Shown here: one piece after another, positions 11,961 through 42,096 of the stretch | How the letters are laid out: every line of letters starts with the position of its first letter | Numbering within the stretch: the stretch's first letter is position 1 | Assembly: GCA_963804165.1 (NCBI GenBank) | Contig: CAWDPO010000039.1 | Span: 1 to 62,289, forward strand | DNA from: an uncultured delta proteobacterium | GTDB lineage: Bacteria > Desulfobacterota > Binatia > UBA9968 | Length of the DNA: 62,289 bases | Reading direction: 5' to 3' | Notes under the pieces: model-generated | Databases searched by the model: none | What the model was told of the DNA's origin: nothing | Seen by the model: the letters and a program-made list of their open reading frames with translations, nothing else | Translations under genes and position numbers: made by a program

Positions 11961-12269
11961 ATGAAAAACACAAGATCACTTTTGGCGGCTTTGATTCTTC
12001 TGGGTAGCATCGCAGCGAGTGCGACAGCTTTCGCCGCCGACGGCGTCATTGCTAAAGACGAGTTTGTAGCAGGCAGTTACTGTCATCAGAAGTTTCAGGC
12101 AATGGAAGGAGAGAGTTTGGCGACCAATGAGCCAGTTCTCAAGAATCCAATTTCTGAAGATGTTATTGACTTCTACGGTCCGTGCGATGCAAGTCCGGTC
12201 GACCAAGATCAGGTTCAACAACAGAGACTAGAACGACAACACCGCTGGACGAACAACTACGAAGACTGA
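11961..12269 (+). CDS. Small secreted two-Cys protein, paralog 1 (SYC..DFYGPC..YED family), function unknown
   Basis: AAAGGAGGTG RBS; signal peptide ending AFA; two paralogs at 41038 and 41794. Confidence 0.85.
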   Translation: MKNTRSLLAALILLGSIAASATAFAADGVIAKDEFVAGSYCHQKFQAMEGESLATNEPVLKNPISEDVIDFYGPCDASPVDQDQVQQQRLERQHRWTNNYED

Positions 12270-12285
12270 GTGTTGCCGCAACGGT

Positions 12286-12310
12286 CGGAGCGGCGCATCA
12301 CGCCCCTCCG
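12286..12310 (+). terminator. GC-rich hairpin downstream of paralog 1
   Basis: CGGAGCGGCG/CGCCCCTCCG stem with one mismatch; no strong U-tract. Confidence 0.4.
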
Positions 12311-12681
12311 GTTCCCCCTGCCTCCAACCACCGACGATTCTGCAGGGAACCTAAAAACAATCTCGCCACTCTAAAACTCGACTATCAGATCACTGGATAT
12401 TTGCGCGTTGAATCGATCTGACTTTCTCGGTCGCTACAAGAGGTCGCTCCTCCAAACGGGCCTGTGGTCCGGTTTTATGTTTCCCAACTCGTACGCCAAA
12501 CAGGAATAACGCGTAGACAAAAATTCAGTTGTGCGGTTGTTCGGAAGCGCAGGAGCAGGCGGTTACTTGAGTGCGAAAATTTTGTCGCCATACGACAGCG
12601 ATGTGCAGTCAAATCTGACGTGCGACGCGAAAGGGCGCAAACACGCGGCGATGATTCAGTGTCGGCAGGCGGGTCAACGGC

Positions 12682-14088
12682 TTAAGATTTGACTGGCTGC
12701 CGCAGCTCCTTGGATTTCTCGCTCTGTACCAGTGGCGTGTAGTTAGTGCTCCGGGCGATGCCGAGTCTTTGCATTTTAGATAACAAAGTGGTGCGCTTGA
12801 GGCCCAAGCGGGCGGCCGCGCCGCGCGGTCCGCCGATGACCGCGCCGGCTTCCCGCAAAGCCTCGAGGATGCGCTGCCGCTCGACGTCTTCCAAAGTGCC
12901 CGCCATGGTCGACGCGATAGGATTTGACTGCTGCAGATCATGGGTTTGAATCTGTAATACGTTTCCTGGCGTCAGTATCACGGCTCGTTCAATCAAGTTT
13001 TGCAGCTCCCTAATGTTCCCGGGCCACGAATACCGACAAAGCGCGGTCATCGCCTCTTCGGGAATCGAATTAATTTGCCTGTTCATGCGCTGCGCATACT
13101 TGTCCACGTAGTGTTGCACCAAGAGCCGAATGTCGCCGGGCCGCTCTCGCAGCGGTGGAATCCGAATTGGAAAGACGTTGAGGCGGAAATACAGGTCCTC
13201 GCGAAATTGTTTTTCGTTGACCATCTGCGCCAGGTCCCGGTTCGTTGCCGCGATCAGGCGCACGTCGACGCGGATGGTTCGCCCGCTGCCGAGGCGCTCG
13301 AACTCCTGCTCCTGCAACACGCGCAGCAGCTTAGGCTGAAGCTCCACGGGAATGTCGCCCACTTCGTCGAGAAAAAGCGTGCCTCCATTCGCCAGTTCGA
13401 AGCGACCGATTTTCTGCGAAACCGCTCCTGTAAAAGCTCCCTTTTCATGGCCGAATAGCTCGCTCTCCAATAAGCCAGAAGGGATCGCTGCACAATTAAG
13501 CTTGACGAAGGGACGATTGGCACGGGAACTGTAGTTAAGGATCGCGCGCGCAAACAGTTCTTTTCCTGTGCCCGTTTCACCCAGAAGCAGCACCGTCGAT
13601 TCTGTCGGTGCGACAACTTCCACCTGATCCAGCACGGCATTCAACGCGTTGCTCTTGCCGACGATATCGGCAAACCTATGGTCCGCCGTATGGCCTCTCT
13701 GCTTCGGCGCCCGCTGATCGCGGGCAATGCCCTGGTGGATCGCGTCCAGTAGATCCTCATCGGCGAAAGGCTTGGTCAAGAACTCCAGCGCGCCCGCCTT
13801 TATGGCTCGGACCGACGTCGGAATATCACCGTGACCGGTGAGAAAAATAATCGGGATATGGATATCCGCCTTGGCCAGTTCCTGTTGCAGGTCGAGTCCG
13901 CTTAGTCCCGGAAGCTGCACGTCCAACACCAAGCAGCTCGGCCCATCGGTCTGCGGGTGAGCTAAAAATTCCTGCGCTGAAGCGAAGGTCTCGACCCGCA
14001 ATCCCGCCGATCGAATCAAGCTGCTCAGAGCCTCACGCACCGACGCATCATCATCCACAACGTAAATTAGAGGAGCTATTTTACTCAT
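12682..14088 (-). CDS. Sigma-54 enhancer-binding response regulator (FixJ-type REC + FhlA-like AAA+ + Fis HTH)
   Basis: REC VVDDD..LDVQLP..KPF; GETGTGKE, GAFTGA, LFLDEVGD, RLNVFPI, WPGNIRELQN, AAARLGLKRTTL. Confidence 0.95.
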   Translation of the reverse strand: MSKIAPLIYVVDDDASVREALSSLIRSAGLRVETFASAQEFLAHPQTDGPSCLVLDVQLPGLSGLDLQQELAKADIHIPIIFLTGHGDIPTSVRAIKAGALEFLTKPFADEDLLDAIHQGIARDQRAPKQRGHTADHRFADIVGKSNALNAVLDQVEVVAPTESTVLLLGETGTGKELFARAILNYSSRANRPFVKLNCAAIPSGLLESELFGHEKGAFTGAVSQKIGRFELANGGTLFLDEVGDIPVELQPKLLRVLQEQEFERLGSGRTIRVDVRLIAATNRDLAQMVNEKQFREDLYFRLNVFPIRIPPLRERPGDIRLLVQHYVDKYAQRMNRQINSIPEEAMTALCRYSWPGNIRELQNLIERAVILTPGNVLQIQTHDLQQSNPIASTMAGTLEDVERQRILEALREAGAVIGGPRGAAARLGLKRTTLLSKMQRLGIARSTNYTPLVQSEKSKELRQPVKS

Positions 14089-14180
14089 GTGGCAACTCCC
14101 TTTCGTTCAACGAGCCGGCTTGATGAGCGGAGAGCACTCGATATCCTCGCTCACCCGGCGTTGCGCTCGCGGTTTCGCTG

Positions 14181-14579
14181 CTACTTTTGTTTCTCCTTGG
14201 ACGGGCTATCGTTGGCCTTGAGAGCCATGTCGATCGCTTTCAATAAGGCTTCCTCGCTGAAAGGTTTGAGCAGGTATTCCACCGCACCGCCGTTAAGGGC
14301 TCGCGCCCGCGTCTCTTCATCGCCGTGCGCCGTGATGAAAATCACGGGCACGGCAAAATGCTCGGCTACCAATCGCCGCTGAAGGTCGAGGCCATTCATT
14401 CCCGGCATGCGCACGTCGAGGATCAAGCAGTCCGTAGCGCGGCGACACTCCGAGTTCAAAAATTCCTCGGCCGAACTAAACACCATAACCCCGAACCCGA
14501 CCGAGCGGATCAGACCGCTAAGGGATTCGCGGACTGAGTCGTCATCGTCGACAACGGATATCAGTGGAAGATGAGCCAT
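14181..14579 (-). CDS. Stand-alone FixJ-type receiver domain protein
   Basis: VVDDDDSVRESL, LDVRMPGMNG, FITAHGD, LLKPF. Confidence 0.9.
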   Translation of the reverse strand: MAHLPLISVVDDDDSVRESLSGLIRSVGFGVMVFSSAEEFLNSECRRATDCLILDVRMPGMNGLDLQRRLVAEHFAVPVIFITAHGDEETRARALNGGAVEYLLKPFSEEALLKAIDMALKANDSPSKEKQK

Positions 14580-14632
14580 GTGGATCTTTCAATCTGACAT
14601 TAATTTAGCAATCTTTCCCACCGTGAATCCAT

Positions 14633-14646
14633 TATACTTTGGTATA
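14633..14646. promoter_or_regulatory. Palindrome TATAC-N4-GTATA, candidate NodW/StyR-type response regulator box
   Basis: TATACTTTGGTATA ~55 bp upstream of the receiver gene start. Confidence 0.45.
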
Positions 14647-14656
14647 GGGAGGTAAA

Positions 14657-14680
14657 GGGCAAGGCGCGCCTTGCCCCTAC
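14657..14680 (-). repeat. GTAG-type REP-like palindrome overlapping the stop codon of the NodW-like gene
   Basis: Minus strand GTAG-GGGCAAGGC-GC-GCCTTGCCC. Confidence 0.55.
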
Positions 14681-15306
14681 GATTTTTGGGGCCGCGAAAT
14701 TCTCAGCTTCTCGCACATCCTGACCAGGTCGGCCAAAGACGCGGCCTGCATCTTTTGCATCACCTGGCCGCGATGAACTTTCACGGTGATCTCGCTGGTG
14801 CCGAGCTCGGCGGCAACCTGTTTGTTGAGTAGCCCGGAGACGACCAACGTCATCACCTCGCGCTCGCGCGGCGTCAACGATTCATGGCGGCTCTGCAGTT
14901 CCGCCATCTCCGCTTCCTGCTGGCGCGCGATCCGGTCGCGTTTTATCGCCTGCTGAATCGCATCCAGCAGATCTCGATCCGCGAACGGCTTGGTCAGAAA
15001 CTCGACGGCTCCCGCTTTCATCGCCCGTACGGAGGTCGGGACATCGCCGTGACCGGTAATAAAAATAATCGGAATGTCGATGCGCGCCTCTGCCATTCGC
15101 CTCTGCAGATCGAGCCCGCTTAGCCCCGGAAGTTGCACGTCCAACACCAAACAGCTCGGTCTATCGGCCTGCGGATGAGCTAAAAACTCCTGCGCGGAAG
15201 CGAAGGTCTCGACGCGCAACCGCGCCGATCGTATCAGGCTCGCCAAACCTTCTCGCACCGACACGTCGTCGTCGACGACAAATACGGTTGGTTTTGGCTC
15301 TGCCAT
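14677..15306 (-). CDS. FixJ/NodW/TodT family response regulator (REC + LuxR HTH)
   Basis: REC plus [38 protein letters not shown]. Confidence 0.95.
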
Positions 15307-15313
15307 AGCGATC

Positions 15314-17437
15314 CTAACGATGCTGCAGGAGCGTAAACTGAAAGGTCGCGCCGGGGCCGTCGTTCGGCGCGGCCCAGAGCCGTCCGCCGTGATTCTCGAC
15401 GATCGAGCGGCTGATCGCCAACCCCATGCCCATGCCTTTAGGCTTGGTCGTAAAGAATGCCGCGAAGAGATGATCGAGGCTTTCGGGATTCAGGCCGATG
15501 CCGGAGTCTTCTACTGCGATTGAAACTTTGTCGGATTCGTATTGATCGGAATGAACGAGCAAGTTACGCGGTCGATCCGTGACTGCGCTCATGGCTTCGA
15601 TGCCGTTCATCACCAGATTGAGAATCACCTGCTGCAGTTGCACCCGATCGCCCAGGACGCGCGGTAGACCCGTGGCCAGTGACATGCGCAGCGTGACGTG
15701 ATTTTTTTGTATTTCACTTTGGATCAAGCTCACGACCTCTTGGATCACTTCGTTCATGTCGAACAGCATTTTTTCGCCGTCGCTTTTTTTGAACAAGGCG
15801 CGAATCCGCCCGATCACGTCGCTGGCCCGGTTGCCGTCGCGAACGATGCGTCCCACGGCCTCGCGCGCCTCGTCGAGGTTTGGCGCTGCGCCCGCGAGCC
15901 AGCGCAAGCTGGCGTTGGCATTGGTGACGACTGCAGCGAGGGGCTGATTAATTTCGTGTGCGATGGAGGCCGTCAGTTCTCCCATGGTCATGGCTCGGGT
16001 GACATGGGCCAGCTCCGCTTGGGCCTCGCGCAAGGCCGCTTCGGCCTGCCTGCGCTGGACGCGCGTGCGTAGCGCGATGACTCCATAGGCTAAGTTGTTT
16101 GCAAGTTCCGTGAACTGCTCGAGCGTCCGTTCATTGAAAGCGTTCGGCTCTTTGGCGTAAAGAGTGAGCGCGCCAAACGGCGCGCCATCGGACATCAATG
16201 GCAGCGAGATGTTCGAACCATAGCCGCGCTCGAGCGCCTCCGCGCGCCAGGGTGCGATACCCGAGTCAGTTTGAATGTTCTTGGTCCACGCAGGCTTGCC
16301 GGTGCGGATTGCCGTCCCGGTCGGGCCATGACCTCGTTCGGCATCTTCCCAGGTGGCTTTCACGCTTTCCACGTATCCTTCGTTATATCCTGCCTGTGCC
16401 ACCGGCCGAATCGACCTTTCCAGGTCAATTTCCTTATAACCCACCCATGCCATGCGCAGCCCGCCGACCTCGACGAGAATACCACAGGCCGCCTGCAGGA
16501 GCTCGTATTCGTCGGTGGCGTGAACCAACGCCTGGTTGCACTGGTAGAGAGTCTGCAGCGTCCGATTCAGCCGCGCGAGGTTATCCTCGGTCTGCTTGCG
16601 CTCGGTGATATCGAGCAGGGCGCCGACCAATCGGATCACGGTTCCGTTCGGACCTTTGATCGGCTCGCCCATACTCTGCACGAAGCGCACGGAGCCGTCG
16701 GGACGAATAACCCGGCACTCAAGATCGTAAAGCTTCCCATCATGGACGACTTCATTATACCGTCGCTCGGCATATTGCCGATCTTCGGGATGAATTACGT
16801 GCTCGATGAAGTCTTGGCGCGACAACGAGCCGTTCGCCGGATCACGTCCCAGGATGCGAAAGACTTCATCGGACCAACGAGTGTGGCCGGTGAGCACATC
16901 GACTTCGAAGCTTCCCAAGTGGGCGACTGCTTGGGCCTCTTTGAGTTGGGCCTCGCTCGACAGCAGGGCCGCTTCCGCGTTCTTCCGTTCAGCGATTTCG
17001 GCGCGCAATTCTTCGTTGATGTGGCGGAACTCAGCCGTGCGCTCACGCACTTTCAACTCCAGCTCGTCGCGCGCCTGCTGAAGCGATTCCCTGGCGCGCT
17101 TTTGACTCGCGCTCAACCAACTGATCGACACCGCAGCGAGAAAAAATACCGCCATGCGCGGCAGGTCTTCCGCGCTGAAATCCAGGGCGTAGTAGGGCGA
17201 CGTAAAATGGTAATCGATCAGCGCCACTGAGAGCGCGCTCGCCAGCAATCCCGGGCCAAGCCCGCCCGACCAACTGCTGAGCACGACCGCGCAAAAGAAC
17301 AATGAGTTGGGCGTCGGATCAAAGTAGGTCCGCAGCAACTCTTTGATGATAAGCGCCGCGGCGACAGATAAGACGGCAAGTCCGTATCGGAGAATAACCG
17401 ACCCGACGCCGCGCGTCCATGTGTCACGGTTCAGCAT
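15314..17437 (-). CDS. Membrane sensor histidine kinase (DUF4118-like TM region, PAS, GAF, HisKA, HATPase), NodV/TodS-like core
   Basis: [10 protein letters not shown] region; PAS (IHPEDR..RPDG); GAF; [31 protein letters not shown]. Confidence 0.92.
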
Positions 17438-17587
17438 GACTGCGCGACCGATTGACAGCGTGTTCGAAGGAACACGGGAGATCGTAAACAAACATAATTG
17501 GCCTCAACTCAGCGATCGTGGCTCGCATGCAGCGGAATATCCAGTAGGGAGAGACGACTAACAACCTCTGTTTGTTCTGCTCACCGC

Positions 17588-18601
17588 TTACTTCTTCGTC
17601 GACGAAGCAGGAGCTGAGTTCGGTGCTTCGTCGTGTCCTGCCGGAGAGCGGCGCAGAGGCACATACAGAACCGACGGCCTATCTGCTCCTCCTTGGGGAA
17701 ATAAATCCATCAGCTCGTAGACAACCCTTGGCATATCAGTAGATATTGGAAGGCCGAGTTCGCGCGCCAACTCAACCGTGATTGGAAAGTCGTGTGTCCA
17801 GCGGCCCTCTGTCAACACTGCGGCTAGGCTCACGGCTTTATCTTTCGGTAAGCGATTGAGCAGGAGTTCGGAAACAAAGCTAGCAACCTGCAGGCGGGCC
17901 TTCGCCGCTACGTCAGCAAGCTCCAAAGTTTCATCCTTAATTCGGTTGACTTGCTTCAAACTCAAAACTCGCACGATCGACGCAGCCGGCATATCGCCGA
18001 TCTGCGGATCGACTGGACCGAGCACGGCATTGGCATCCATGACGATCTCGTCCGCTGCGAGCGCGATAAGGGTTCCACCGCTCATTGCGTAGTGCGGAAC
18101 AAAAACGGTGACTTTGCCCTTGTGTTCTACCAGAGCCTTGGCAATCTGCTCGGCGGCAAGGACCAGTCCTCCGGGTGTATGAAGAATCATGTCGATCGGC
18201 TGGTCGGGCGGTGTGAGACGGATCGCCCTCAGCACGGCTTCGGAATCTTCAATATTGATGTAGCTGCTCACGGGGACTCCGAAGAGGCTGATAGTTTCTT
18301 GCCGGTGAATCATTGCGATCACGCGCGATTTTCTCTGCTGCTGAAATTGATCGAGAACACTGGCTCTGGCAGCGTTCGTCCAATACGGTCCGAAAATTTG
18401 CTGGACAACCATGTAGGCCACAATCAACCAAAACGCGAACTTCCCTATGCGGGGAAGCGGGTGCCACCACCGATGCCGTGACGGTCTCATTGAGCTCAGT
18501 CGTTTTTCCGATTCGTCGCTGACGTTTTGTATTTCCATGAGGTTAAGTCCATCTATTTTTTTATGCACAGGGGGCAAGACCCATGCCATCCAACAAGACA
18601 T
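17588..18601 (-). CDS. ClpP/crotonase-class serine protease-like protein (SDH_sah type) with N-terminal TM anchor
   Basis: LHTPGG, AMSGGTLIALAADEI, LGPVDPQ, WTHDFPI; GGAGG before ATG 18601. Confidence 0.85.
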   Translation of the reverse strand: MSCWMAWVLPPVHKKIDGLNLMEIQNVSDESEKRLSSMRPSRHRWWHPLPRIGKFAFWLIVAYMVVQQIFGPYWTNAARASVLDQFQQQRKSRVIAMIHRQETISLFGVPVSSYINIEDSEAVLRAIRLTPPDQPIDMILHTPGGLVLAAEQIAKALVEHKGKVTVFVPHYAMSGGTLIALAADEIVMDANAVLGPVDPQIGDMPAASIVRVLSLKQVNRIKDETLELADVAAKARLQVASFVSELLLNRLPKDKAVSLAAVLTEGRWTHDFPITVELARELGLPISTDMPRVVYELMDLFPQGGADRPSVLYVPLRRSPAGHDEAPNSAPASSTKK

Positions 18602-18762
18602 TTGCACGCCTCCATGATTTGAAACGGAAGTGGCAGAAACCGAGGTCTTTTGTCTCTCCGTTGAGAAACAGGTTGACGGTTTCGTAAAAATAGCGACTCC
18701 TCCCAAGCAGTTTGCAATGTTGACAAGGGTTTGTAATCGCGGGAAAACCGTTTTTGCGGATG

Positions 18763-18777
18763 GCAAACTTGAACCCG
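18763..18777 (-). promoter_or_regulatory. Possible sigma-54 promoter for the ClpP-like gene
   Basis: CGGGTTCAAGTTTGC (GG-N10-GC); UAS-like pair at 18853-18866 and 18871-18884. Confidence 0.45.
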
Positions 18778-19120
18778 ATACCACTCATGATGCGAGCGGA
18801 TCGGCAGAGAGTAAAAACTTAAGCACCTTGCATAAAGGTCAAAGAATCAGGTGCCGAAATACCGTAACTTGTCTAACTGACGACACTGCTGCATTTATGC
18901 CTGTTGAAGGGCGGACCAGATTTAGAACCGTGCAGCAGATCCTTTTTCGAGATGTCGAATGCGCGAGGCGTAAAGTACTTCCTGATGGAACGTCCATACC
19001 GCCCAGGACCGATAACGACCAGCGCCGAGCACCGTCACCGAACGAGCTATGAATTCGAGAGTTGTCCGTATGGAACTCTCATAACTTGGTACAGGGTCTC
19101 GCTTGCTTCTCCACGGCTGG

Positions 19121-20540
19121 TTAGAGCTGCGGCAGATCCGCGACATTCCAGCCGCCGCCGAGCGCCTTCACCAGCAGCACGCTCGCATCCATGCGGTGGC
19201 GCAGAATGTCGACTTGGTTGCGTTCGTTGGCCAGTGCCACGGTCTGAGCGGTGATAACTTGGAGGTAGGTGTCGACGCCGCCTTTGTAGCGATTGGTAAA
19301 GAGCTGCAGGGATTCCCGCGCTGACACCACGGCGCGCTCTTGTTGCTGGGTTTCCTGCTCAAGGATGCGCAGCGCGGCGAGATTGTCTTCCACCTGTTGA
19401 AAGGCATCGAGCGTGGCCTGGCGATAGCTGGCGACGGTTGCATCATAGTTGGCGAGCGCCGCTTCGGAAGTAGCTTTCCGCCGACCGCCATCGAAAATCG
19501 TTTGCGCTAAAGAACTGCCGACCGCCCACAAGAAACTCGGCCAACCCACCCAATTTCGGATCGAGCTGCTTTCGAATCCGAGCAGAGCATCGAGTGTCAC
19601 CGTTGGAAAGTATGCCGCCTTGGCGATGCCGATCTGTTCGTTGGCCTCCGCGACGCGACGCTCTGCCGCCGCGATGTCCGGCCTTCGCTCTAAAAGTTCC
19701 GAAGGGAAACCTGCCGGTATATCCGGTGGCTGGAAATCCAATGGCGCTGGCGTAAGGCTAAACTCCGCGGGCGGCTTGCCAATCAGAATCGCGATGGCGT
19801 GCTCGAACTGTGCTCGCTGCACGGCGATATCCGTGGCTTGTACTTGCGTGGTTTCCAGTTGCGTCCGCGCTTGGGCCACATCCGACTTGGGCGCGGCGCC
19901 GCCTTCGAATCGATTGGTCGTGAGCTGCAGGGCTTCCTCGAAGGCTTTCACCGTGTCGTTGAGCAGCCGCTGCTGGGCATCCGCGCTGCGCAGTTCGAAG
20001 TAATCGAACGCCAGCTCCGCCTGCAAGCTTAGCCTGGCGGTCTCCAAGTCGGCGGCGGTTGCCTGGGCTTCCGCGCGGGCGGAAGTCACGCTCCGGCGGA
20101 TACGGCCCCACAAATCCAGCTCGTAAGAGACATCGCCGGTCAACAGAAAGTCGCGGGTTGACGCGCCGCTTGACGGTGGCTGGGTCTTCGTCGAATCGCG
20201 CAGGGAACTCGCGCTAGCCCCGGCCGAAACCGTGGGGAACAATCCGGCGCGGAAAAAACCGATCAATGCGCGCGCCTGGCGGTATCGCGCCTCGGCCACC
20301 TTCACGTTTTGATTGGCCTCACTCACTTGTTCTTCCAGCGCGTTCAGCTGCGGATCACCGAAGATCTCCCACCACTTGCCGCGCGGGATTTTGTCGCTCG
20401 GTCGCGCGAGCTTCCACCCCTGGTCCTCCTTGTAGCCGGCCGTCATCGGCACCGCGGGCTTGAAAATAATCCGGTCCCACCATGCAACCTGCGCACAGCA
20501 ACACCACAGCAGCAGTAAGACCGAGGTTCAATGATTTCAT
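19121..20540 (-). CDS. Outer-membrane efflux lipoprotein (NodT/OprM family); one frameshift near 20460
   Basis: LCAGCMVGPDY lipobox in ORF 20355-20540; WWEIFGDPQL, ELDLWGRIRR, ELLERRPDIAAAE, ALGGGW. Confidence 0.9.
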
Positions 20541-21754
20541 CGCGCGGCGCCTTGAGCGGGTGGAGTATTCACTTGAACGGTCGTCCCGCCGATCAGAGAG
20601 TCGCTTGGATTGACGATGACCGGATCCGTAGTCTGGAGCCCGGACAAAACCTCCACGCTGTTGCCGTAGTCGCGACTGATGGTCACTGGGACGAGTTGCG
20701 CGCGGCCGTTGCGAACCACGCCGACGCGCAAGCCCTCGGAGCGGAATAGCAAGGTATTGGCGGGCAGCGTGATGGAGCCGGTCGATTGCGGCAATTTGAG
20801 ATGAACGCTGACGTAAGCGCCGGGGAGCAGGGTGCCGCTGCGGTTATCCACATCGACCTCGACAAGCAGAGTTCGTGAGGCCGGATCGATGGAGTTGGAG
20901 TTGCGCGCGATCGTGCCGTCGAAAGTCTTGCCGGGAAATTCGTCGAGCGTCAAAAATGACGTCGCGCCCGGGCGCACTGCCTGCGCATAGAGTTGCGGCA
21001 CCGCGACAAAGACGCGCAAGATGTTGATTGCCGTGAGGTGGAAGAGCTCCTGCGCCGATGTACTCGCCCCCGAATTAATCAGCGCGCCGATATCCGTGTT
21101 GCGCGCCGTGATCACGCCGTCGAAAGGAGCATAAATCTTCTGAAACCCCTGGAGTTCCTCCAGGCGGCGGACATTGGAGCTGTTTGAGTCGACCGTGGCT
21201 TTCATCGCATGAAAGTTGCTCACAGCCACGTCGGTTTCCTGCTTCGACACGGAGTTCGTTTTCCAGAGGGCTTCCCAGCGGTCCGCGGTGATTTCGGCCT
21301 GGCGCAGGTTGGCCTGCGCGGTTTGCAGATCCGCCCGCGCTTGCTGCAGCTGCTGGTCCACTTCGGGGGTCTCGATCTCGGCCAGGAGCTGGCCCTTCTT
21401 CACCCTTGTCCCGATGTCAACGTGCCAACTTTTCACATAACCGTTCGTCCGCGCAAAGATCGGCGCATCGGTAAACGCCTGGGTATTGCCTGGCAGAACA
21501 ATCTCATTGTTGGGAGCGCCGGCCTTCGGATAGACCACGTTGACGATCGATGTCGCTGCCGCCGCAGTGGTCTGCTGCAGGTCCGCTTCCGCCCTGTTGC
21601 GACTGATCAAGCCAAAGGCAATCGCGACGACAAAAACTCCTGCCACGATGGTGAGAATCACATAAGTCGCGAATCCAATCCCCGCATGGTGGTCTGGATC
21701 GCGCGGGGTATTTTCCAATTGGGTTTCGGATTCTTTCTTCTCGTCATTGGTCAT
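20537..21754 (-). CDS. RND efflux periplasmic adaptor (membrane fusion protein)
   Basis: ARTNGYV..VDIGTRVKKGQLLAEI, IYAPFDGVIT, IDPASRTLLVE. Confidence 0.92.
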   Translation of the reverse strand: MTNDEKKESETQLENTPRDPDHHAGIGFATYVILTIVAGVFVVAIAFGLISRNRAEADLQQTTAAAATSIVNVVYPKAGAPNNEIVLPGNTQAFTDAPIFARTNGYVKSWHVDIGTRVKKGQLLAEIETPEVDQQLQQARADLQTAQANLRQAEITADRWEALWKTNSVSKQETDVAVSNFHAMKATVDSNSSNVRRLEELQGFQKIYAPFDGVITARNTDIGALINSGASTSAQELFHLTAINILRVFVAVPQLYAQAVRPGATSFLTLDEFPGKTFDGTIARNSNSIDPASRTLLVEVDVDNRSGTLLPGAYVSVHLKLPQSTGSITLPANTLLFRSEGLRVGVVRNGRAQLVPVTISRDYGNSVEVLSGLQTTDPVIVNPSDSLIGGTTVQVNTPPAQGAAR

Positions 21755-21801
21755 TGTATTGCTCCATGAAATAAATCGGCTGCCGTTGGCGCAGGGTTTT
21801 G

Positions 21802-24800
21802 TCATTCACCTACGGATTGAGTTGCGCCTCGTTTGCTGTGAAAAATGCTGAACACGGCCGGAACAAAAATCATCGTGGCCACCGTAGCGCACAGCAGTCC
21901 GCCGATGACCGCACGTCCGAGCGGCGCGTTCTGCTCACCGCCGTCGCCCAATCCAAGCGCCATGGGAACCATACCGATGATCATTGCGAAAGCGGTCATG
22001 AGCACCGGGCGAAAACGCGTGAACCCGGCCTCGATGGCGGCCTCGAGCGCATTGCCATGTTCGGCAAGCCGCTCTTTGGCAAATGACACGACGAGAATGC
22101 TATTGGCGGTGGCGACGCCCATGCACATGATCGCGCCCATCAACGCCGGGACGCTGAGCGTGGTGTGAGTGATAAACAAGAAGACGATGATGCCGGCCAA
22201 CGCGGCGGGCAACGCCGTGATGATAATGAAAGGATCCAACCAAGACTGGAAATTGACCACGATCAGTAGATAGACCAGGACGATCGCGAAACCGAGACCC
22301 GCCAGCAAGCCGATATAGGACGTGTGCATCGTCGAGAGCTGTCCGCGAATCTTGATGAAGCTGCCGCGCGGTAAGAGCTTTTGGTTGGCATCGACGATGC
22401 GCTGGATGTCACTGCCGACGGCGCCGAGGTCCCGGTCCTGCACGGAGGCATAAATGTCCACGACGCGGCGGATGTCATAGTGATTCAGCACCGCCATCTC
22501 ACTCGATCGCGTGATCGAAGCGACGTCGGCCAAAATCTCCGGACTCTTCATCGTCGCCGAAGTAATCGGCATGTTCTGAAGGTCTTGCAGGGATTGAATC
22601 CGGTATTGGGGGGTCTGGGTCGCCAAGTTATAGTTGACGCCATTTTGCCAATTCAGGAAAAAGGTCGGAGTCGTCTGAAAACTTCCGCTCAGCGACACCA
22701 ACAAGCTGCTGGCGACGTCCCGCTGGGTGAAGCCGCCGCCGGCTGCTTTCGTGCGGTCCACGTCGATATGGAATTTCGGGTAATCGAAGTCTTGCTGAAT
22801 GCGCGGATCGACGATACCCGGTACGTGGCGTATCTCGTTCAGTATCTTGTCGGCGATCTTTCGATTGCCTTGAACGTCAGCGCCCTCGATCTGAATATCG
22901 ATGGGCGCCGGCAAGCCGAAGTTCAAAATCTGGGTGACGATATCCGCGGGCAAAAAGTAGAAAGTGTTGCCGGGAAATTCACCGGGCAGCCGCTTGCGTA
23001 GCTCCCGGACATACTCAGCCGTGGGACGATGATTCTCCTTGAGGGACACCAGGATGTCTGCGTCCGCGGCGCTGATCAGGCCAGAGGTGTTGTGCATGTA
23101 ATTAATAGTGCTGTAGGGCAACCCGATGTTGTCGAGAATATTGTCCAGTTCCTGGGCCGGAATGACCCGCCGAATCGAGTCCTCGACGAGATCGGCAAGG
23201 CGCGCGGTCTCTTCAATGCGCGTGCCGGTCTTGGCACGCACGTGCAGGCTAAACTGGCCGCTGTCGGTGTCAGGAAAAAAGTTTTCACCCAGCCAAGGCA
23301 CGAGGGCCCAGGCGGAAAGACAGAGCAGAAGAAACACAGGGACAAACATGAACCGCCGATGAACCAGCGTCGTGAGTAGGCGCTGATAGCCGAGGCGAAG
23401 ACGCTCAAACCCGCGCTCGAACGAATCCTGAAACCGGATGAATGGATTGCGCGAAGTAGCCGCATGGTGATCTTTCGGTTTCAGGAGATACAGCGCCATC
23501 GTAGGCACGAGGGTTCGAGACAAGAAATACGACGCGAGCATGGCGAAGACCACCGCCTCGGCGAGCGGCACGAAGAGGTAACGCGCGACGCTGCTCAAAA
23601 AAAACATCGGCAGGAACACGATGCAAATGCTGAGCGTGGACACCAGGGCGGGAACGGCGATTTGCGACGCGCCGTCGAGGATCGCCTGCTTGATTTCCTT
23701 ACCCTGATCCAGATTCCGGTTGGTGTTCTCGATCTCCACGGTGGCGTCATCCACCAGCATGCCCACCGCGAGCGCGAGCCCGCCGAGCGTCATAATGTTG
23801 ATGGTTTCCCCTAAGAAGCTTAGGACGATGATCGAGACCAGAATCGACAGCGGGATGGAAACCGCGATGATCAGCGTGCTGCGCCAGCTTCCCAGAAAAA
23901 TCAGGATCATCAAGCCGGTGAGGCAGGCGGCGATGACGGCTTCGCGGATGACGCCGCTCACCGCCGAGCGCACGAAGATCGATTGATCCGCAAGCGCCTG
24001 AACTTTTAGCTGGGGCGGCAGCGTGGCCGCGACACGCGGAAGAATCGCGCGAATGCCATTGACGACGTCCAGTGTGGACGCGCTCCCCGCCTTGAGCACG
24101 GTGACGAGCACGCCGCGCAGGCCATCGTGCCGGACAATGTTGGTCTGCGGCGCAAAGCCGTTGCGCACGTGGGCCACGTCCCGAAGATAGATCGTCGAGC
24201 TGCCCACCTGCTTGATTGGAAGGTCGTTCAGTTGCTCGACGGTTCTGGGTGCGCCGTTGATATCGACGTCATATTCAAATTGACCGATTTTCGCCGTGCC
24301 GGAAGGCAATACCAGGTTTTGCAGATTTACCGCGTTCACCACGTCGGTCGCCGACAAACCCTTGGATTGAAGCAACGCCGGGTTCAAATCGATCATCACT
24401 TGGGTTTGTTTGCCGCCGTAGGGATAAGGCACCGCCGCGCCGGGAACCGTGACGAGTTGGGTTCGCAAAAAATTCAAACCGAGGTCGTTGAGCTGCTGCT
24501 CGGAAAGGCCTTCTCCTGAAAGAGCAAGCTGGATGATCGGCACGGTTGAAGCGCTGAAGTTGAGGATCAATGGGGGCTGCGCGCCGGCGGGCAACTGGCG
24601 CAGAGCGACCTGCGATACCGCCGTGATCTGCGCGTTGGCGATAGCGAGACTGGCATTCGGCTGAAGAAAAACTTTGATGATCGATTGACCGTTGATGGTG
24701 GTCGATTCGATGTGCTCGATGTTGTCGACGACCGTGGTGAGAATGCGCTCGAAGCCGGTCGTGAAGCGGCCTTCCATCTCTTCCGGGTTCAATCCCGTAA

Positions 24801-24951
24801 ACTGCCAGGCGACGGCAACCACCGGAATGTTGATATTTGGAAAAATGTCCGTCGGCGTGCGCTGGATTACCACGGGGCTGGCCAGCAAAATCAACAGCGC
24901 CAGGACGATAAATGTATAAGGACGATTAAGTGCGACTCTGACTATCCACAT
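21802..24951 (-). CDS. RND efflux permease (AcrB/AcrD/AcrF family)
   Basis: 1049 aa; DIFPNINIP, GMLVDDATVEIEN, GFTRFRPVLMT, APLGRAVIGGL. Confidence 0.95.
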   Translation of the reverse strand: MWIVRVALNRPYTFIVLALLILLASPVVIQRTPTDIFPNINIPVVAVAWQFTGLNPEEMEGRFTTGFERILTTVVDNIEHIESTTINGQSIIKVFLQPNASLAIANAQITAVSQVALRQLPAGAQPPLILNFSASTVPIIQLALSGEGLSEQQLNDLGLNFLRTQLVTVPGAAVPYPYGGKQTQVMIDLNPALLQSKGLSATDVVNAVNLQNLVLPSGTAKIGQFEYDVDINGAPRTVEQLNDLPIKQVGSSTIYLRDVAHVRNGFAPQTNIVRHDGLRGVLVTVLKAGSASTLDVVNGIRAILPRVAATLPPQLKVQALADQSIFVRSAVSGVIREAVIAACLTGLMILIFLGSWRSTLIIAVSIPLSILVSIIVLSFLGETINIMTLGGLALAVGMLVDDATVEIENTNRNLDQGKEIKQAILDGASQIAVPALVSTLSICIVFLPMFFLSSVARYLFVPLAEAVVFAMLASYFLSRTLVPTMALYLLKPKDHHAATSRNPFIRFQDSFERGFERLRLGYQRLLTTLVHRRFMFVPVFLLLCLSAWALVPWLGENFFPDTDSGQFSLHVRAKTGTRIEETARLADLVEDSIRRVIPAQELDNILDNIGLPYSTINYMHNTSGLISAADADILVSLKENHRPTAEYVRELRKRLPGEFPGNTFYFLPADIVTQILNFGLPAPIDIQIEGADVQGNRKIADKILNEIRHVPGIVDPRIQQDFDYPKFHIDVDRTKAAGGGFTQRDVASSLLVSLSGSFQTTPTFFLNWQNGVNYNLATQTPQYRIQSLQDLQNMPITSATMKSPEILADVASITRSSEMAVLNHYDIRRVVDIYASVQDRDLGAVGSDIQRIVDANQKLLPRGSFIKIRGQLSTMHTSYIGLLAGLGFAIVLVYLLIVVNFQSWLDPFIIITALPAALAGIIVFLFITHTTLSVPALMGAIMCMGVATANSILVVSFAKERLAEHGNALEAAIEAGFTRFRPVLMTAFAMIIGMVPMALGLGDGGEQNAPLGRAVIGGLLCATVATMIFVPAVFSIFHSKRGATQSVGE

Positions 24952-25055
24952 AATATAACAGTTACTTTAGTGATAATTTGTTAAGGGAGCGCCGAAGCGA
25001 GCGCCGACAAATTTCAGTTTCCCAATCTCCCGTTGTCTGGTTAAGCGCATTAGTG

Positions 25056-25070
25056 GCAAGCGATGTGCCA
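25056..25070 (-). promoter_or_regulatory. Sigma-54 promoter of the RND operon
   Basis: TGGCACATCGCTTGC, a near-perfect consensus; UAS pair GCCGCTGTGTCGAC (25157) and GCCGAAATACCGGC (25175). Confidence 0.85.
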
Positions 25071-25417
25071 ACTTCTTTGAAGATTGCGAAATCACTTTGA
25101 GCAGCGAAATTGAAACAGATGACTTCTATTATTTGCCGAGCTCGAGGAGATGCCGTGCCGCTGTGTCGACAGATGCCGAAATACCGGCGTCTAGGCAGTT
25201 TTTTATGATTTTTCAGTCGCGTTAACCGAATGAAGAGGCCGCTGAGTCGACGAGTTCAAGCGTAACTACGTGGGCGTCGCTTTATCGTCTCTGACCGGGA
25301 TCTTTTGATGGACACTGGAGCTTTGATAGGATAGCTGACGTTTAGGTCTTCTGCGCATTCATGCGACCGATATACTGAGAAAGATTTCTGATTCATCCAA
25401 GCGGAGGCGCGAGCGTC

Positions 25418-33011: not shown

Positions 33012-33326
33012 GGACAGACCAATATCGGAGAACGTCTAAAAATGTGAGGAATAGGGCAATCTCAGATGTGGCAGTTTGGCTTCAAACAGATTGTGACGAC
33101 GATCCTTGCCGACATAACGGCAAGGCGTCGGAATGTCGACCTTGCTGCGGTGAGCGATGCCCAGTTTTTTTATCCGTGCTTGAAGAGTTGTGCGCCTCAC
33201 CGCACTACAGAAATCGTTGCGCTTTTCAAAAAGAAAATCACCGACGAATGTATGATTGCGAGTCCTGGCCCCCCAATTGCTCCTTCGATTGTGTTTTAAG
33301 AAAAACTACCGAAAGGAACCTCTCAA

Positions 33327-36620: not shown

Positions 36621-36721
36621 AACGAGTTTTCGCGTGGCAAAATGTCTCTTGAATCTACAGCATCACTGAACGTAGATAGCCGACTCTTCCAAGGAGAATG
36701 CTTTCATTTATTGTCGAACCC

Positions 36722-37699: not shown

Positions 37700-37740
37700 T
37701 CGTTTTCTTGCATTACAATTGCGTCGCGCCCGGAAGCCGC

Positions 37741-38829: not shown

Positions 38830-38907
38830 GATAAATCACTCTCCTTGCTCGCCAGCGGATTTTCATTGATCCTTCGCGTCCGCTGGTTGTTTCGTAAGCC
38901 CTGTCGC

Positions 38908-39282: not shown

Positions 39283-39357
39283 TTATTCCACCTCGAAAAA
39301 TGGCAGACGATGCAGGCTCGCATCGCAACCGCCTCGCACGTTCTAATCTAGTAATTC

Positions 39358-39372
39358 GCCAAATCCATGCCA
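39358..39372 (-). promoter_or_regulatory. Sigma-54 promoter of the lipoprotein-DUF3300-DUF2950 operon
   Basis: TGGCATGGATTTGGC; UAS pair GTCGATGGGATGAC (39507) and GTCGGCATGACGAC (39525). Confidence 0.7.
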
Positions 39373-39376
39373 CGGC

Positions 39377-39402
39377 AAAAAGCCCGCCGTTGACGGCGGG
39401 TT
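39377..39402 (-). terminator. Hairpin with T-tract on the minus strand (terminator or REP-like)
   Basis: CCCGCCGT-CA-ACGGCGGG-CTTTTT. Confidence 0.55.
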
Positions 39403-39795
39403 GGAAGAGCTAGAACGCGAATCAATGCGCAAGAAATACCGAGGCTTGTGATTGCGAATCGAATCGACGGTGTCCGGCAAGAGAAGCCTGGAGAATTGGA
39501 CTGAAGGTCGATGGGATGACGGGTGTCGGCATGACGACGACGCCGTCATTAGAGACGTATTGTCTGTGAAATCCAGATTGACGCAACAACGGGTTGTCGT
39601 CGATGCGTGCTTTGCTTGGGTGAGTAGCATTGGCTAACGGGCTCAGTAACGCGCTGGCGCCCCTCCGAAAAATCTGTAGACCGCGATGCAAAGGGGATGA
39701 AGGAGGACGGTCAAAAAAAACCACTCGTGCCGCTACGCGGTTGTGATACTTGGCCTCGCGTAATCGCGATACTCAAATTGCTGTGTTTTCCGGGT

Positions 39796-39948
39796 TTAGT
39801 CTTCGTTGTAGATGCGATCCATATCCCAATTGGTGCGGTATTTTTGGCACGCGGGTTTGTCGTAACTGTCGGCGGCAAGACAGCCGCATCCGGCTAGCAG
39901 TCCCGAAACCAAAACAAATACAATCCAGGCTGATACTGAGCGGCGCAT
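39796..39948 (-). CDS. Putative very small lipoprotein (50 aa)
   Basis: MRRSVSAWIVFVLVSGLLAGC lipobox; ends WDMDRIYNED; weak RBS. Confidence 0.5.
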   Translation of the reverse strand: MRRSVSAWIVFVLVSGLLAGCGCLAADSYDKPACQKYRTNWDMDRIYNED

Positions 39949-40043
39949 TGTGATCTTTTGTTTACCTTGGAGCGATGGACCGGACATCGTAGTCTTCGTT
40001 TTTGGGTGTCTTGGAAATCCGTTTCTTGGCGACTGGGCGCCGG

Positions 40044-40259
40044 CTAGTGAGTGTACACGCTCGGCATTTCCGTCGCGTAGCCGCGCAGCTCAGAGCTGTT
40101 CTTGGATCGATCGCCGTTCTTCCCGATCTCAAAAACCTGCAAAGTCGTTCCCAGTCGGCGAGCCTCCGAGGCGCAATCCGCGCACACCTTGATGTCGAGG
40201 ACGTCGGTAACAACTCGGAACTCAGCTTCTTTGTCATTGATGCATCTTTGACATTTCAT
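40044..40259 (-). CDS. Small putative zinc-binding protein (CxxC...CxxC), 71 aa
   Basis: MKCQRC..KVCADC; AAGGAG RBS. Confidence 0.7.
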   Translation of the reverse strand: MKCQRCINDKEAEFRVVTDVLDIKVCADCASEARRLGTTLQVFEIGKNGDRSKNSSELRGYATEMPSVYTH

Positions 40260-40362
40260 TTTGATCTCCTTCACTGCTCGGGTCAGACTTGGCTTCTTTT
40301 CTCTTTAATCGGAAGTCGTGAACCGATTGTAATTTATCAGTGCTTCCTAGAGAGAGAGTGTG

Positions 40363-40377
40363 GCAAGGTTTATGCCA
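40363..40377 (-). promoter_or_regulatory. Sigma-54 promoter
   Basis: TGGCATAAACCTTGC; perfect palindrome GTCGATATATCGAC (40468) plus GTCTAGATAGCGCC (40486). Confidence 0.8.
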
Positions 40378-40534
40378 GCCTTGTTTAGCCTGCCGATGAT
40401 CAGCGCAACTCACGACGTTGTGAGATCTTAGACCGGAATGATCGCTCATTTGTGATGCAACTTCCGAGTCGATATATCGACCCATGTCTAGATAGCGCCA
40501 CGACGAATCAAGTCGGGTACGATCAAAGTAGGCG

Positions 40535-40927
40535 TCAGCAATCTCTCGTGGTGTCGAGAGCCGTATGTATCGCGCCGAGCAAGGTATCGGCGGCGAACGG
40601 TTTTTGCAGGAAGTCGATGGCGCCGGCCTTCACGGCCTGAGCTCGCGCCGACGGATCGTCGCGGGCCGTAATGAAGATCATCGGAACCCGAAATTGCCTG
40701 TTGGCCAATCGACACTGAAGCTCTAACCCGGTCATGACCGGCATGTGGACATCCACGATCAAGCAACTCGTCTTATCGAGCACATTGGAACCGAGCAAGT
40801 CCTCGGCTGATGAAAAGATCTCGGCGGCAAAGCCGACGGATTGCAAAAATCCCTTAAGAGCATCGCGGACCGATTCATCGTCATCCACTACGGTTATGAG
40901 AATGCTCGTTGAAATGGTGTCTGGCAC
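40535..40927 (-). CDS. Stand-alone FixJ-type receiver domain protein
   Basis: VVDDDESVRDAL, VDVHMP, FITARDD, LQKPF. Confidence 0.88.
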   Translation of the reverse strand: MPDTISTSILITVVDDDESVRDALKGFLQSVGFAAEIFSSAEDLLGSNVLDKTSCLIVDVHMPVMTGLELQCRLANRQFRVPMIFITARDDPSARAQAVKAGAIDFLQKPFAADTLLGAIHTALDTTRDC

Positions 40928-40989
40928 GGCTTTGTGTTTCCTATTCGGAGAGCGGAGTGAAATAATTATGTTTCGAATTAAACTTGGTG

Positions 40990-41012
40990 GAGGAGGGAAG
41001 CCGCCCCTCCTC
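40990..41012 (-). terminator. Hairpin downstream of paralog 2
   Basis: GAGGAGGG/CCCTCCTC stem. Confidence 0.45.
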
Positions 41013-41037
41013 GTTCACCGTTCCAGCGTCTCCTCTC

Positions 41038-41346
41038 TTAGTCTTCGTAGTCATGCGCCCAACGATGGTAATGATCGAGTTCCTGCTCGTGGACTTGATC
41101 CTTCCCAGTTGGATCTTCGTCACAGGGTCCGTAAAAGTCTACGATGTCGCCCTCGCTTGGGTCCTTCAGAACTGGATGATCCCCAGCCAAGGTTCTCCCG
41201 CGTATCGCGGGAAACTTCAGGTGACAGTAACTTCCCGGAGTAAGCTCTTGTTTGTAGATTACTCCATCCGCAGCCATCGCCGTGGCGGTCGCGCCTAGCG
41301 TGCCGATTAAAAGCAGGCCCGCTAAAAATGACGTTGCGATTTTCAT
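41038..41346 (-). CDS. Small secreted two-Cys protein, paralog 2
   Basis: AAAGGAGGTG RBS; signal peptide; ADGVI..SYC..KF..DFYGPC..DQ..HRWAHDYED. Confidence 0.85.
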   Translation of the reverse strand: MKIATSFLAGLLLIGTLGATATAMAADGVIYKQELTPGSYCHLKFPAIRGRTLAGDHPVLKDPSEGDIVDFYGPCDEDPTGKDQVHEQELDHYHRWAHDYED

Positions 41347-41391
41347 GATGGTCACCTCCTTTCTTTTTCATTCTTCCAACAGAGGGGTATG

Positions 41392-41406
41392 GCAAGGTCT
41401 GTGCCG
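41392..41406 (-). promoter_or_regulatory. Sigma-54 promoter of paralog 2
   Basis: CGGCACAGACCTTGC; UAS-like GTCGAGATTCAGAC at 41495. Confidence 0.75.
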
Positions 41407-41744
41407 GAGCCTGTTGAGATCAAAAAGGACTTGAGAGTTGCCGAGTTACAATTGCGCACGCATCGAGATGAGATGTTTTGCGAGAGAAAAACGTGTCGAG
41501 ATTCAGACGAACGCCATGATAGTAACTTCCAAGTTTCGACGACCGACGTGAAGACGACAGCATGTCACCAAGGTTCGATGGTGGAGAATTTTCGAACGGA
41601 GAATTTTCTTCGGCCTGAGGAAAGCGGATGAAGCGTTCTCTATCGGCTGACGTCGTCGCTTGGAATTTGTAGCGGGAAGCTTAAAGAAAAGAATGGCACA
41701 AATGTTCTTTTGCTGAACTTCACTTGACGATGGAAGGAATGGCG

Positions 41745-41770
41745 AAGAGGAGGGCCGTGGCCCTCCTCTT
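41745..41770 (-). terminator. Perfect 12-bp-stem hairpin downstream of paralog 3
   Basis: AAGAGGAGGGCC-GT-GGCCCTCCTCTT. Confidence 0.55.
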
Positions 41771-41793
41771 TACGTTACGCCGTTTACCAGCAA

Positions 41794-42096
41794 TTAATCC
41801 TCGTAGTCGTTGGCAAAACGATGCTGGGCTTCCAGTTTTTGAGCCTGGATTTGATCCTTGCCAACGGGACTCTCGTTGCAAGGCCCGTAGAAGTCGATGA
41901 CCGCGCCGGACTGATTGATGACCGGGTTATCGGTATCAAGGCTCTGTCCCGTCATCGCATGAAACTTCTCGTTACAGTAGCTATTTGTGGTCAGCTCGTC
42001 TTTCGAGATAACGCCATCCGCGCTCATTGCAGTGTTGATTGATCCGAGTGCGCCTGTGAAAAGCACGGCTGCCAAAAATGATGTTGCCATTTTCAT
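41794..42096 (-). CDS. Small secreted two-Cys protein, paralog 3
   Basis: AGGGAGGTG RBS; signal peptide; ADGVI..SYC..KF..DFYGPC..DQ..HRFANDYED. Confidence 0.85.
   Translation of the reverse strand: MKMATSFLAAVLFTGALGSINTAMSADGVISKDELTTNSYCNEKFHAMTGQSLDTDNPVINQSGAVIDFYGPCNESPVGKDQIQAQKLEAQHRFANDYED

Follow-up and report, generated by a model that had tools for sequence, protein, structure and literature searches.

Contig CAWDPO010000039.1 of GenBank assembly GCA_963804165.1, from an uncultured delta proteobacterium of the class Binatia (UBA9968), carries three genes for small, mutually similar proteins with an apparent signal peptide, which raises the question of what these proteins are and what turns their genes on. 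The stretch of DNA that was analysed, hereafter the window, comprises positions 1 to 62,289 of the contig (62,289 nt), and the three genes are referred to as ORF1, ORF2 and ORF3. In a first-pass annotation of the window, the proteins had been taken for paralogues of no recognised family, each encoded by a stand-alone sigma-54 unit. We hold with high confidence that the three are real sigma-54-controlled genes for exported proteins.

Three genes for small exported proteins

The genes and the elements immediately around them are as follows.

11961..12269, forward strand: ORF1, family member of 102 aa, signal peptide at about residues 1-25 and mature protein from ADGVI
41038..41346, reverse strand: ORF2, family member of 102 aa
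41794..42096, reverse strand: ORF3, family member of 100 aa
11948..11954, forward strand: ribosome-binding site (RBS) of ORF1, GGAGGTG
12283..12311, forward strand: 3' hairpin after ORF1, weak (z -1.3), no T-run
40990..41012, reverse strand: 3' hairpin after ORF2, 9-bp GGAGG/CCTCC stem (z -1.1)
41745..41770, reverse strand: 3' hairpin after ORF3, strong, 11-bp stem, -28.5 kcal/mol (z -4.6)

Open reading frame (ORF) calls on the window bear out three frames of 100-102 aa at these positions. The mechanical ORF list starts all three earlier, at upstream GTG/ATG codons; the ATG starts of the first-pass annotation are supported by a GGAGGTG lying 6 nt before the ATGs at 11961, 41346 and 42096, so that the RBS proposed for each copy is indeed present, by the alignment of homologues, and by an excess of differences at third codon positions relative to orthologues (11/12/33 by codon position for ORF2 against family locus L014, with third positions dominating against orthologues generally). 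Pairwise identity among the three proteins is 55%, and 41 of 102 columns are invariant, including both cysteines and the C-terminal YED. Read by sequence, the N-termini run from MK through a hydrophobic stretch to AFA, AMA or AMS before ADG; all three are of the Sec type, in agreement with the signal peptides first proposed, and a Sec-like N-terminus is found in 85/90 homologues by a simple rule on charge and hydrophobicity. Export of the family proteins is very likely, and the predicted mature proteins are ~75 residues long after cleavage.

The GGAG/CTCC-rich 3' hairpins that had been described do exist after all three genes, but only that of ORF3 beats shuffled sequences. No T-run accompanies any of them, and a simple scan of 40900-42400 found 0 canonical terminators and 0 sigma-70-like promoters. 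Contigs of one soil metatranscriptome align over 41790-42098 (309 nt, 32 differences) and 41205-41355 (151 nt), which hints, weakly, that the RNA library contains near relatives; among sequencing runs, none contained more than 0.18 of the sampled words.

Sigma-54 promoters and their conservation

Each copy had been assigned a sigma-54 promoter ~40-45 bp upstream, and elements are found at essentially these distances.

11907..11921, forward strand: sigma-54 -24/-12 element of ORF1, TGGCATATCGATTGC, ending 39 nt before the ATG
41392..41406, reverse strand: sigma-54 -24/-12 element of ORF2, CGGCACAGACCTTGC, ending 45 nt before the ATG
42137..42151, reverse strand: sigma-54 -24/-12 element of ORF3, TGGTATGGACGTTGC, ending 40 nt before the ATG

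Sites were called with the model TGGCAC-N5-TTGC, in which the GG and GC dinucleotides are fixed and 10 nt apart; the three elements depart from it by 1, 1 and 2 mismatches, and the TGGTA variant in the ORF3 element is common to its orthologues. Where 4.75 sites with at most one mismatch are expected in the window, 11 are found, a count reached by 0 of 100 shuffles. At up to two mismatches the excess is weak (77 sites against 62.7 expected, with 4 of 100 shuffles reaching 77), so that the sigma-54 case is carried by the fixed distance at which the element is conserved in homologues, not by counts within the window.

That conservation is seen at several levels. Across nine orthologous upstream regions the invariant columns cluster in a 34-nt box ~105 nt before the GG, the -24/-12 element and the RBS, the rest having diverged; this retention of enhancer box, promoter and RBS upholds the earlier description of each copy as a stand-alone sigma-54 unit. 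Among 95 family genes with enough upstream DNA, surveyed at up to two mismatches, 30 have a site whose end lies 33-50 nt from the start, most often 40 nt, compared with 5/95 on the reverse strand and 1.3% of random 60-nt windows. Grouped by similarity to the window's proteins, the site is present in 17/21 of the closest, 5/24 of the intermediate and 8/50 of the distant homologues. Independent metagenome loci, fetched via a 190-aa neighbour of ORF3 that is described below, carry it in 47/49 cases, 31-45 nt before the start. Promoter type is also clustered on the family tree, where sigma-54 control changes 9 times and shuffling gives a mean of 24.6. The proposed link of homologues to sigma-54 thus stands for a subfamily, but not for the 65/95 surveyed genes without a site: judged from upstream sequence, sigma-54 control is conserved, yet is a property of a subfamily only. 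The window's genome (a 7.5 Mb assembly, 81% complete with 5% contamination) contains rpoN, with one Sigma54_DBD match of 210 bits, and ~29 activator genes.

Enhancer elements and candidate regulators

Further upstream lie putative enhancers, and nearby lie genes for candidate regulators and an efflux operon of the resistance-nodulation-division (RND) type.

11785..11798, forward strand: perfect palindrome TCGACATCTGTCGA, putative enhancer (upstream activating sequence), 122 nt upstream of the ORF1 promoter
41493..41526, reverse strand: conserved upstream box of ORF2, GTTACTATCATGGCGTTCGTCTGAATCTCGACAC, putative enhancer
42239..42272, reverse strand: conserved upstream box of ORF3, GCTGATATTTCGCCGTTCGATGATATCTCGACAC, putative enhancer
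43113..43126, no strand assigned: perfect palindrome TCGACATCTGTCGA, 202 nt upstream of the promoter of the 190-aa gene
19121..25179, reverse strand: RND efflux operon encoding an outer-membrane factor, an adaptor and a pump; its sigma-54 site at 25056-25070 is perfect, and the palindrome lies at 25166-25179 with 1 mismatch
12682..17491, reverse strand: kinase-activator operon convergent with ORF1, candidate cognate regulator
15314-17491, reverse strand: DUF4118-PAS-GAF histidine kinase of that operon
14677-15306, reverse strand: LuxR-type regulator of that operon
14181-14579, reverse strand: receiver of that operon
12682-14088, reverse strand: NtrC-type sigma-54 activator of that operon
40535..40927, reverse strand: single-domain response regulator, 113 nt downstream of ORF2, its position kept in L012, L013 and L014

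ORF1 and a paralogue on C17 (C numbers denote contigs of the window's own genome, and L numbers family loci) are preceded by the perfect palindrome TCGACA-N2-TGTCGA, 121-122 nt upstream of their promoters, whereas ORF2 and ORF3 have a conserved box, different from the palindrome, ~105 nt upstream of theirs; the box recurs in 39/49 of the independent metagenome loci. With one mismatch allowed, 24 copies of the palindrome are found in 7.5 Mb, of which 7 lie 109-202 nt upstream of a sigma-54 site. The combination precedes ORF1, the C17 paralogue, the gene for the 190-aa protein, the window's RND operon, a second RND operon on C16 and one other gene. The C16 operon stands beside another family pair, such that pair, operon and an activator fall within 5 kb. 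A regulon common to ORF1 and these other genes is supported by the shared enhancer palindrome, and the window's RND operon is probably a member of it.

The NtrC-type activator lies 668 nt from ORF1, and the arrangement of family gene(s) convergent with a kinase-activator operon recurs, being found in the window, on C16 and at L025, L029, L031 and L040. We infer that this convergent activator is likely to be the protein that binds the palindrome. ORF2 and ORF3 probably answer to a second activator, since their conserved box differs from the palindrome. In the window and at L012, L013 and L014 a single-domain receiver comes after the ORF2-type gene, and DUF3300/DUF2950 genes further on are common to the three L loci except L013. 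An earlier suggestion that the family proteins are ligands for the membrane kinases is unlikely, as both kinases in the window consist of three closely spaced membrane segments with no periplasmic domain.

Two irregular reading frames were observed among such genes. A short ORF at 33036-33200 (reverse strand) ends in ...RIKKLGIAHRSKV, resembling the C-terminal DNA-binding end of an activator with the rest of the gene absent, and is perhaps a gene fragment. In the sigma-54-driven RND operon on C16, the adaptor gene (~22200-23820, reverse strand) reads as two ORFs of 172 and 185 aa, which may reflect a frameshift or an assembly error.

A family without a recognised relative

A profile of the three sequences retrieved 1368 clusters at E<=1e-3 from proteins clustered at 90%, all annotated as hypothetical and none with a Pfam domain. 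A profile of 93 sequences, run without length restriction against 50% clusters, retrieved 366 clusters, 220 of them at E<=1e-10; nearly all are of 60-150 aa, which indicates that the family is a stand-alone domain. The family proteins have no match at E<=10 in Pfam, including the CpxP/Spy/ZraP (LTXXQ), CusF and MarB entries; the sole NCBIfam match scored 0.34 and fell on the signal peptide, with no match to CusF; a sequence-profile search of the PDB gave no match; and an Atlas search returned only the family's own unnamed clusters. MarB (PF13999) was considered as an identity and rejected, being merely the nearest named Atlas cluster at a chance-level 0.76. A literature search found nothing on Binatia together with sigma-54, and a further one gave an unrelated review; absence of the family from the literature is weakly supported, as an unnamed family is hard to search for by words.

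The core of the family reads YCHxKF...DFYGPC(D/N)xxPxG...Q. The two cysteines emphasised in the first-pass annotation are not peculiar to the three copies, both being present in 249/269 family proteins, and a single disulfide probably pins the fold. Within DFYGPC, the D, Y and G are kept by 257-259/269 proteins (D70 and Y72 each by 259); H42, after the first Cys, is kept by 235/269 and Q88, the helix Gln, by 242/269. AlphaFold2, given mature ORF2 with 93 sequences, predicts a small three-stranded sheet with a C-terminal helix (strands 6-11, 15-21 and 43-48, helix 57-75; pLDDT 89.5, pTM 0.74). The best Foldseek match to this model has an E value of 1.3, and VIA, a Foldseek-independent scan of 48,161 chains, gives a best Z of 2.8, to an anti-CRISPR protein; for a model of 77 residues, the lack of a structural neighbour does not prove a new fold. 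The initial failure to recognise the family is accordingly echoed by the profile searches of Pfam, NCBIfam and the PDB and by the absence of a usable structural neighbour, and the family is new, with a predicted fold that is perhaps new too.

The invariant C-terminal YED, also singled out at the outset, is true of the three copies but confined to their close subfamily. Tails of other members are basic or acidic (e.g. RERRRRYGSD), and the position three residues from the end is occupied by Y in 139 of the 153 tails that align and by F in 10. The YED tail cannot lie at the core of function, since two short lipoprotein paralogues in the same genome (L090:88-300 on C12 and L089:124-327 on C13; 70 and 67 aa) lack the whole C-terminal helix. 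These short versions retain the two-Cys core, as YC(H/N)xK and VVDYYGPCD, and the C13 gene has a perfect sigma-54 site 50 nt upstream.

With the two short versions and nine clear members, the window's genome has at least 11 family members. The member on C9 looks lipid-anchored. On C16, a tandem pair was observed at 26087-26722 (L005), of which the first gene has a sigma-54 site but TAG at codon 2 (ATG TAG...) and may be a pseudogene or an assembly error, while the second, 60 nt on, has its own RBS and no promoter. Elsewhere, carriers are labelled mostly as 'Candidatus Binatia' and 'Deltaproteobacteria' metagenome bins, with a few labelled Verrucomicrobia, Pyrinomonadaceae, Syntrophobacteraceae or Eisenbacteria; bins made up of short contigs may carry wrong labels. 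Carriers have 1-8 copies and the distribution is patchy: the family was found in 0/300 other sampled genomes of the phylum of the window's genome, and in 6/151 sampled genomes of the class of the L014 genome, that genome included, counts from samples that do not establish absence. On the family tree, other genomes have separate orthologues of ORF2 and of ORF3, at 81% identity, indicating that the duplication is old.

The 190-aa secreted partner

Immediately upstream of ORF3 lies a second kind of gene for a secreted protein.

42302..42874, reverse strand: 190-aa secreted protein ('c60'), conserved upstream neighbour of ORF3-type genes, with a predicted fold that may be of the Mog1/PsbP/DcrB type
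42910..42924, reverse strand: sigma-54 element of the 190-aa gene

The protein has 108 homologues, all hypothetical. Linkage was counted in 80 metagenome loci fetched via this protein, of which 61 were assessable: a family gene follows directly on the same strand in 55, there is room but no such gene in 6, and the remaining 19 have too little DNA. The gap between the two genes is usually 204-209 nt (29/55) and is 205 nt in the window. A sigma-54 site of its own precedes the 190-aa gene in 58/63 cases, in 23 of which the palindrome is present as well, 115-214 nt upstream. The AlphaFold model of the protein (pLDDT 83.8), compared with the Mog1/PsbP/DcrB type, in which helices back an antiparallel sheet, gave VIA scores of Z 6.1-6.4 to DcrB, PA1624 and SciW, below a top row of Z 7.3 to a tRNA synthetase, all graded 'middling', and Foldseek E values of 5e-3 to 3e-2. 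Complex prediction with mature ORF3 scored 0.00 in two runs made without controls, which speaks neither for nor against binding.

Paralogues of the 190-aa protein were also noted at C40:28260-28779 and C40:33938-34381, neither with an adjoining family gene; one is split into two frames and the other has a sigma-54 site upstream. Divergent from the 190-aa gene, window positions 43392-55074 (forward strand) hold a 3315-aa ORF followed by RHS-repeat ORFs.

Clades under other promoters

Members outside the sigma-54 subfamily are found in other settings. Genes for a sigma factor of the extracytoplasmic function (ECF) type and its anti-sigma factor also lie upstream of ORF1 in the window.

10074-10685, forward strand: ECF sigma factor, within 10074..11492, directly upstream of ORF1
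10689-11492, forward strand: zf-HC2 anti-sigma factor, directly upstream of ORF1, periplasmic domain taken as residues 112-267

At 18 loci a family gene has an ECF sigma gene beside it, and at 17 a homologous anti-sigma gene, the locus of ORF1 being among them. One clade is divergent from an ECF sigma/zf-HC2 anti-sigma operon and has a conserved promoter, GGAATTTTT-N~14-GTC (GGAAT...GTC); its family gene heads an operon in which a YncE-like propeller, a cupredoxin and a cytochrome c follow, an arrangement kept in L028, L030, L038, L058, L060, L063 and L078. This is the configuration of typical ECF sigma targets, unlike which the window's three copies use sigma-54, with promoter type following the clades on the tree. 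Searched in the window's genome, the ECF-type motif has 18 sites, none beside a family gene. A third clade lies among solute-binding-protein genes, with neither promoter type. A GGCC...GGCC inverted repeat was also observed between the ECF-type promoter and the RBS, e.g. GGCCGATGATCGGCC, in L021, L023, L028, L030, L038, L058, L063 and L078, and may form a 5'-UTR (untranslated region) stem-loop.

Proposed role and alternatives

The best explanation, to which we give roughly an even chance, is that the family proteins are induced periplasmic outputs of NtrC-type two-component systems, similar in working to ZraP and Spy and unrelated to them. Each gene would be its own transcription unit read by sigma-54 RNA polymerase and, as is general for sigma-54, should give no transcript before the closed complex is remodelled by an NtrC-type activator that binds ~105-120 nt upstream. 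Membrane-embedded two-component sensors would induce the family proteins through such activators, and the strong RBS would give a burst of periplasmic protein alongside the efflux pumps and the putatively Mog1/PsbP-like periplasmic protein. The most likely role of the product would then be that of a periplasmic binding protein, protective or accessory, under envelope or xenobiotic stress; that its role is envelope-stress protection in particular is put forward tentatively, as a possibility that falls short of probable.

ZraP, Spy and CpxP are helical, the LTXXQ family being a helical hairpin; ZraP and CpxP tune their own kinases, and BaeR is an OmpR-type regulator acting at sigma-70 promoters. 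Membership of the CpxP/Spy/ZraP (LTXXQ) family was rejected for the proteins studied here, given the absence of a Pfam match at E<=10 and a model of three strands and one helix. The family differs from ZraP in having no sequence match to it, in its predicted sheet with one helix as opposed to a helical protein, in being multi-copy and in the lack of a periplasmic domain in the kinases, and differs from Spy and the BaeSR system in its control by sigma-54 and in the proteins not being homologous (Pfam, Foldseek, VIA). The likeness to ZraP/ZraSR is that of a small periplasmic protein in a separate sigma-54 unit under predicted NtrC-type two-component activation: according to PMC4987338, ZraR activates zraP from a sigma-54 promoter, ZraP is a periplasmic chaperone, and its induction is by envelope stress. 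PMC3160322 gives spy, mdtA and acrD as the core BaeSR regulon, so that BaeSR co-induces RND pumps with a small periplasmic protein; here one palindrome precedes ORF1 and two RND operons.

Several observations weigh against the proposal. Spy, CpxP and ZraP have a fold other than the one predicted here. The palindrome is missing upstream of ORF2 and ORF3, no activator gene occurs within 27 kb of either, and a true sigma-54 activator occurs within 6 kb in 13 of ~82 loci against ~4.6% expected, a modest enrichment. The window's genome has 438 sigma-54 sites at up to one mismatch, 143 of them with an RBS and an ORF within 140 nt, and with so many candidate units sigma-54 control alone says little about function. 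Finally, the neighbours of other clades are mixed (ECF sigma with propeller, cupredoxin and cytochrome c, solute-binding-protein arrays, thioredoxin, DoxX), which fits a generic periplasmic accessory protein and equally fits other roles.

CusF, an exported metallochaperone of ~80 residues that is tied to an RND pump and under two-component control, is a beta-barrel with Met/His/Trp ligands. The family resembles it as a small exported protein linked to an RND pump and two-component control, and might by analogy with CusF and CusCBA be a periplasmic metal or substrate shuttle for the co-regulated RND pumps, with a Cys/His/Asp/Tyr cluster as the binding site. The palindrome shared by ORF1 and the two RND operons, the C16 cluster of family pair, pump and activator, the conservation of H42, D70, Y72 and Q88 beside the cysteines, and the cupredoxin and cytochrome c genes that follow the family gene in the ECF-linked clade all suit such a shuttle. 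We nevertheless consider it unlikely: the His is Asn in ORF3 and 12/269 members, a disulfide is the simpler reading of two invariant cysteines in an exported protein, pumps are absent from the vicinity of most family genes, and the window's pump falls below the cut-offs of the multidrug and CusA/CzcA models and is not classed as heavy-metal. Unlike CusF, moreover, the family has no Pfam or NCBIfam match, conserves Cys/His/Asp/Tyr and is modelled as three strands and a helix; the Foldseek and VIA searches with the family model list no small beta-barrel chain, although a beta-barrel is not thereby excluded.

The linkage to the 190-aa gene raises another scenario of low probability, in which the two proteins would form an undescribed periplasmic module that senses or buffers an envelope signal and feeds back on the regulators, through the periplasmic domain of the anti-sigma factor or through the single-domain receiver. 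A related alternative, which we rate as quite improbable, is that the family protein alone is a periplasmic feedback regulator, binding the zf-HC2 anti-sigma periplasmic domain or another sensor and so tuning its own induction. It would account for the recurrence of ECF sigma and anti-sigma genes beside family genes, including directly upstream of ORF1, for the conserved promoter of the ECF-linked members and for the receiver after ORF2-type genes, and it has a precedent in that ZraP is a repressor of ZraSR according to the title of a reference cited in PMC4987338. The same arrangement, however, is that of an ordinary ECF target gene, the window's kinases offer no periplasmic domain, and many family genes have no nearby regulator.

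Less probable still is a small redox-active or cofactor-bearing partner of periplasmic electron-transfer proteins. The conserved propeller-cupredoxin-cytochrome c operon of the ECF-linked clade, the thioredoxin and DoxX genes near other members and the invariant Cys and Tyr are in keeping with it, but such neighbours are missing around the window's three copies, no family gene was detected next to the propeller-cupredoxin pair on C11, and a CxxC motif is absent. A secreted antimicrobial peptide or intercellular signal under two-component control is the least likely of these alternatives: it would suit proteins that are small, exported and multi-copy and whose tandem genes, under promoters of their own, adjoin those for kinases and efflux pumps, but lipid-anchored versions exist, the leader, with its AxA site, is Sec-type and not double-glycine, many members sit inside solute-binding-protein operons, and a recurrent immunity or dedicated export gene was not found in the surveyed neighbourhoods.

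Other candidate sigma-54 units

Many of the 143 candidate units in the genome encode small secreted proteins or lipoproteins, and several belong to repeated small-protein families, such as MKSIDVNLHKPSYWQ... on C18, C35, C40 and C43 and MRQRKVIKTTLGDLIVAV... on C1 and C24. In the window, a sigma-54 unit at 40044-40274 (reverse strand, promoter 40363-40377, reverse strand) encodes a small CxxC...CxxC protein of ~71 aa, and sigma-54 sites on C30, C35 and C40 likewise precede genes for small Cys/His proteins of a similar kind. An ORF for an SDH-type ClpP-like protease at 17588-18784 (reverse strand) has a sigma-54-like site at 18574-18588 (reverse strand) within its 5' part; its Pfam match begins only at residue 109, and the true start may lie downstream of the site, making this a further sigma-54 unit.

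Biological significance

The regulatory logic described here is of a known kind, and the protein family is new. No part of bacterial genomes is less well annotated than the small exported proteins, and to our knowledge the ligands of DUF4118-type kinases are largely unknown. With more than 1000 sequence clusters in soil metagenomes, a confident predicted fold without a solved neighbour, clean regulatory signposts and a conserved partner gene, the family is directly testable: the promoters are usable as reporters for the signal sensed by DUF4118-type kinases, and the protein is small enough for quick structural and binding studies. If the two-protein module were real, soil bacteria would have a new kind of envelope stress response, which evolution has connected in some cases to sigma-54 activators and in others to ECF sigma factors. 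If the preferred explanation holds and the family proteins are periplasmic stress proteins induced by two-component systems, the pattern in which such a system induces an efflux pump together with a small periplasmic helper would have arisen independently outside the Proteobacteria.

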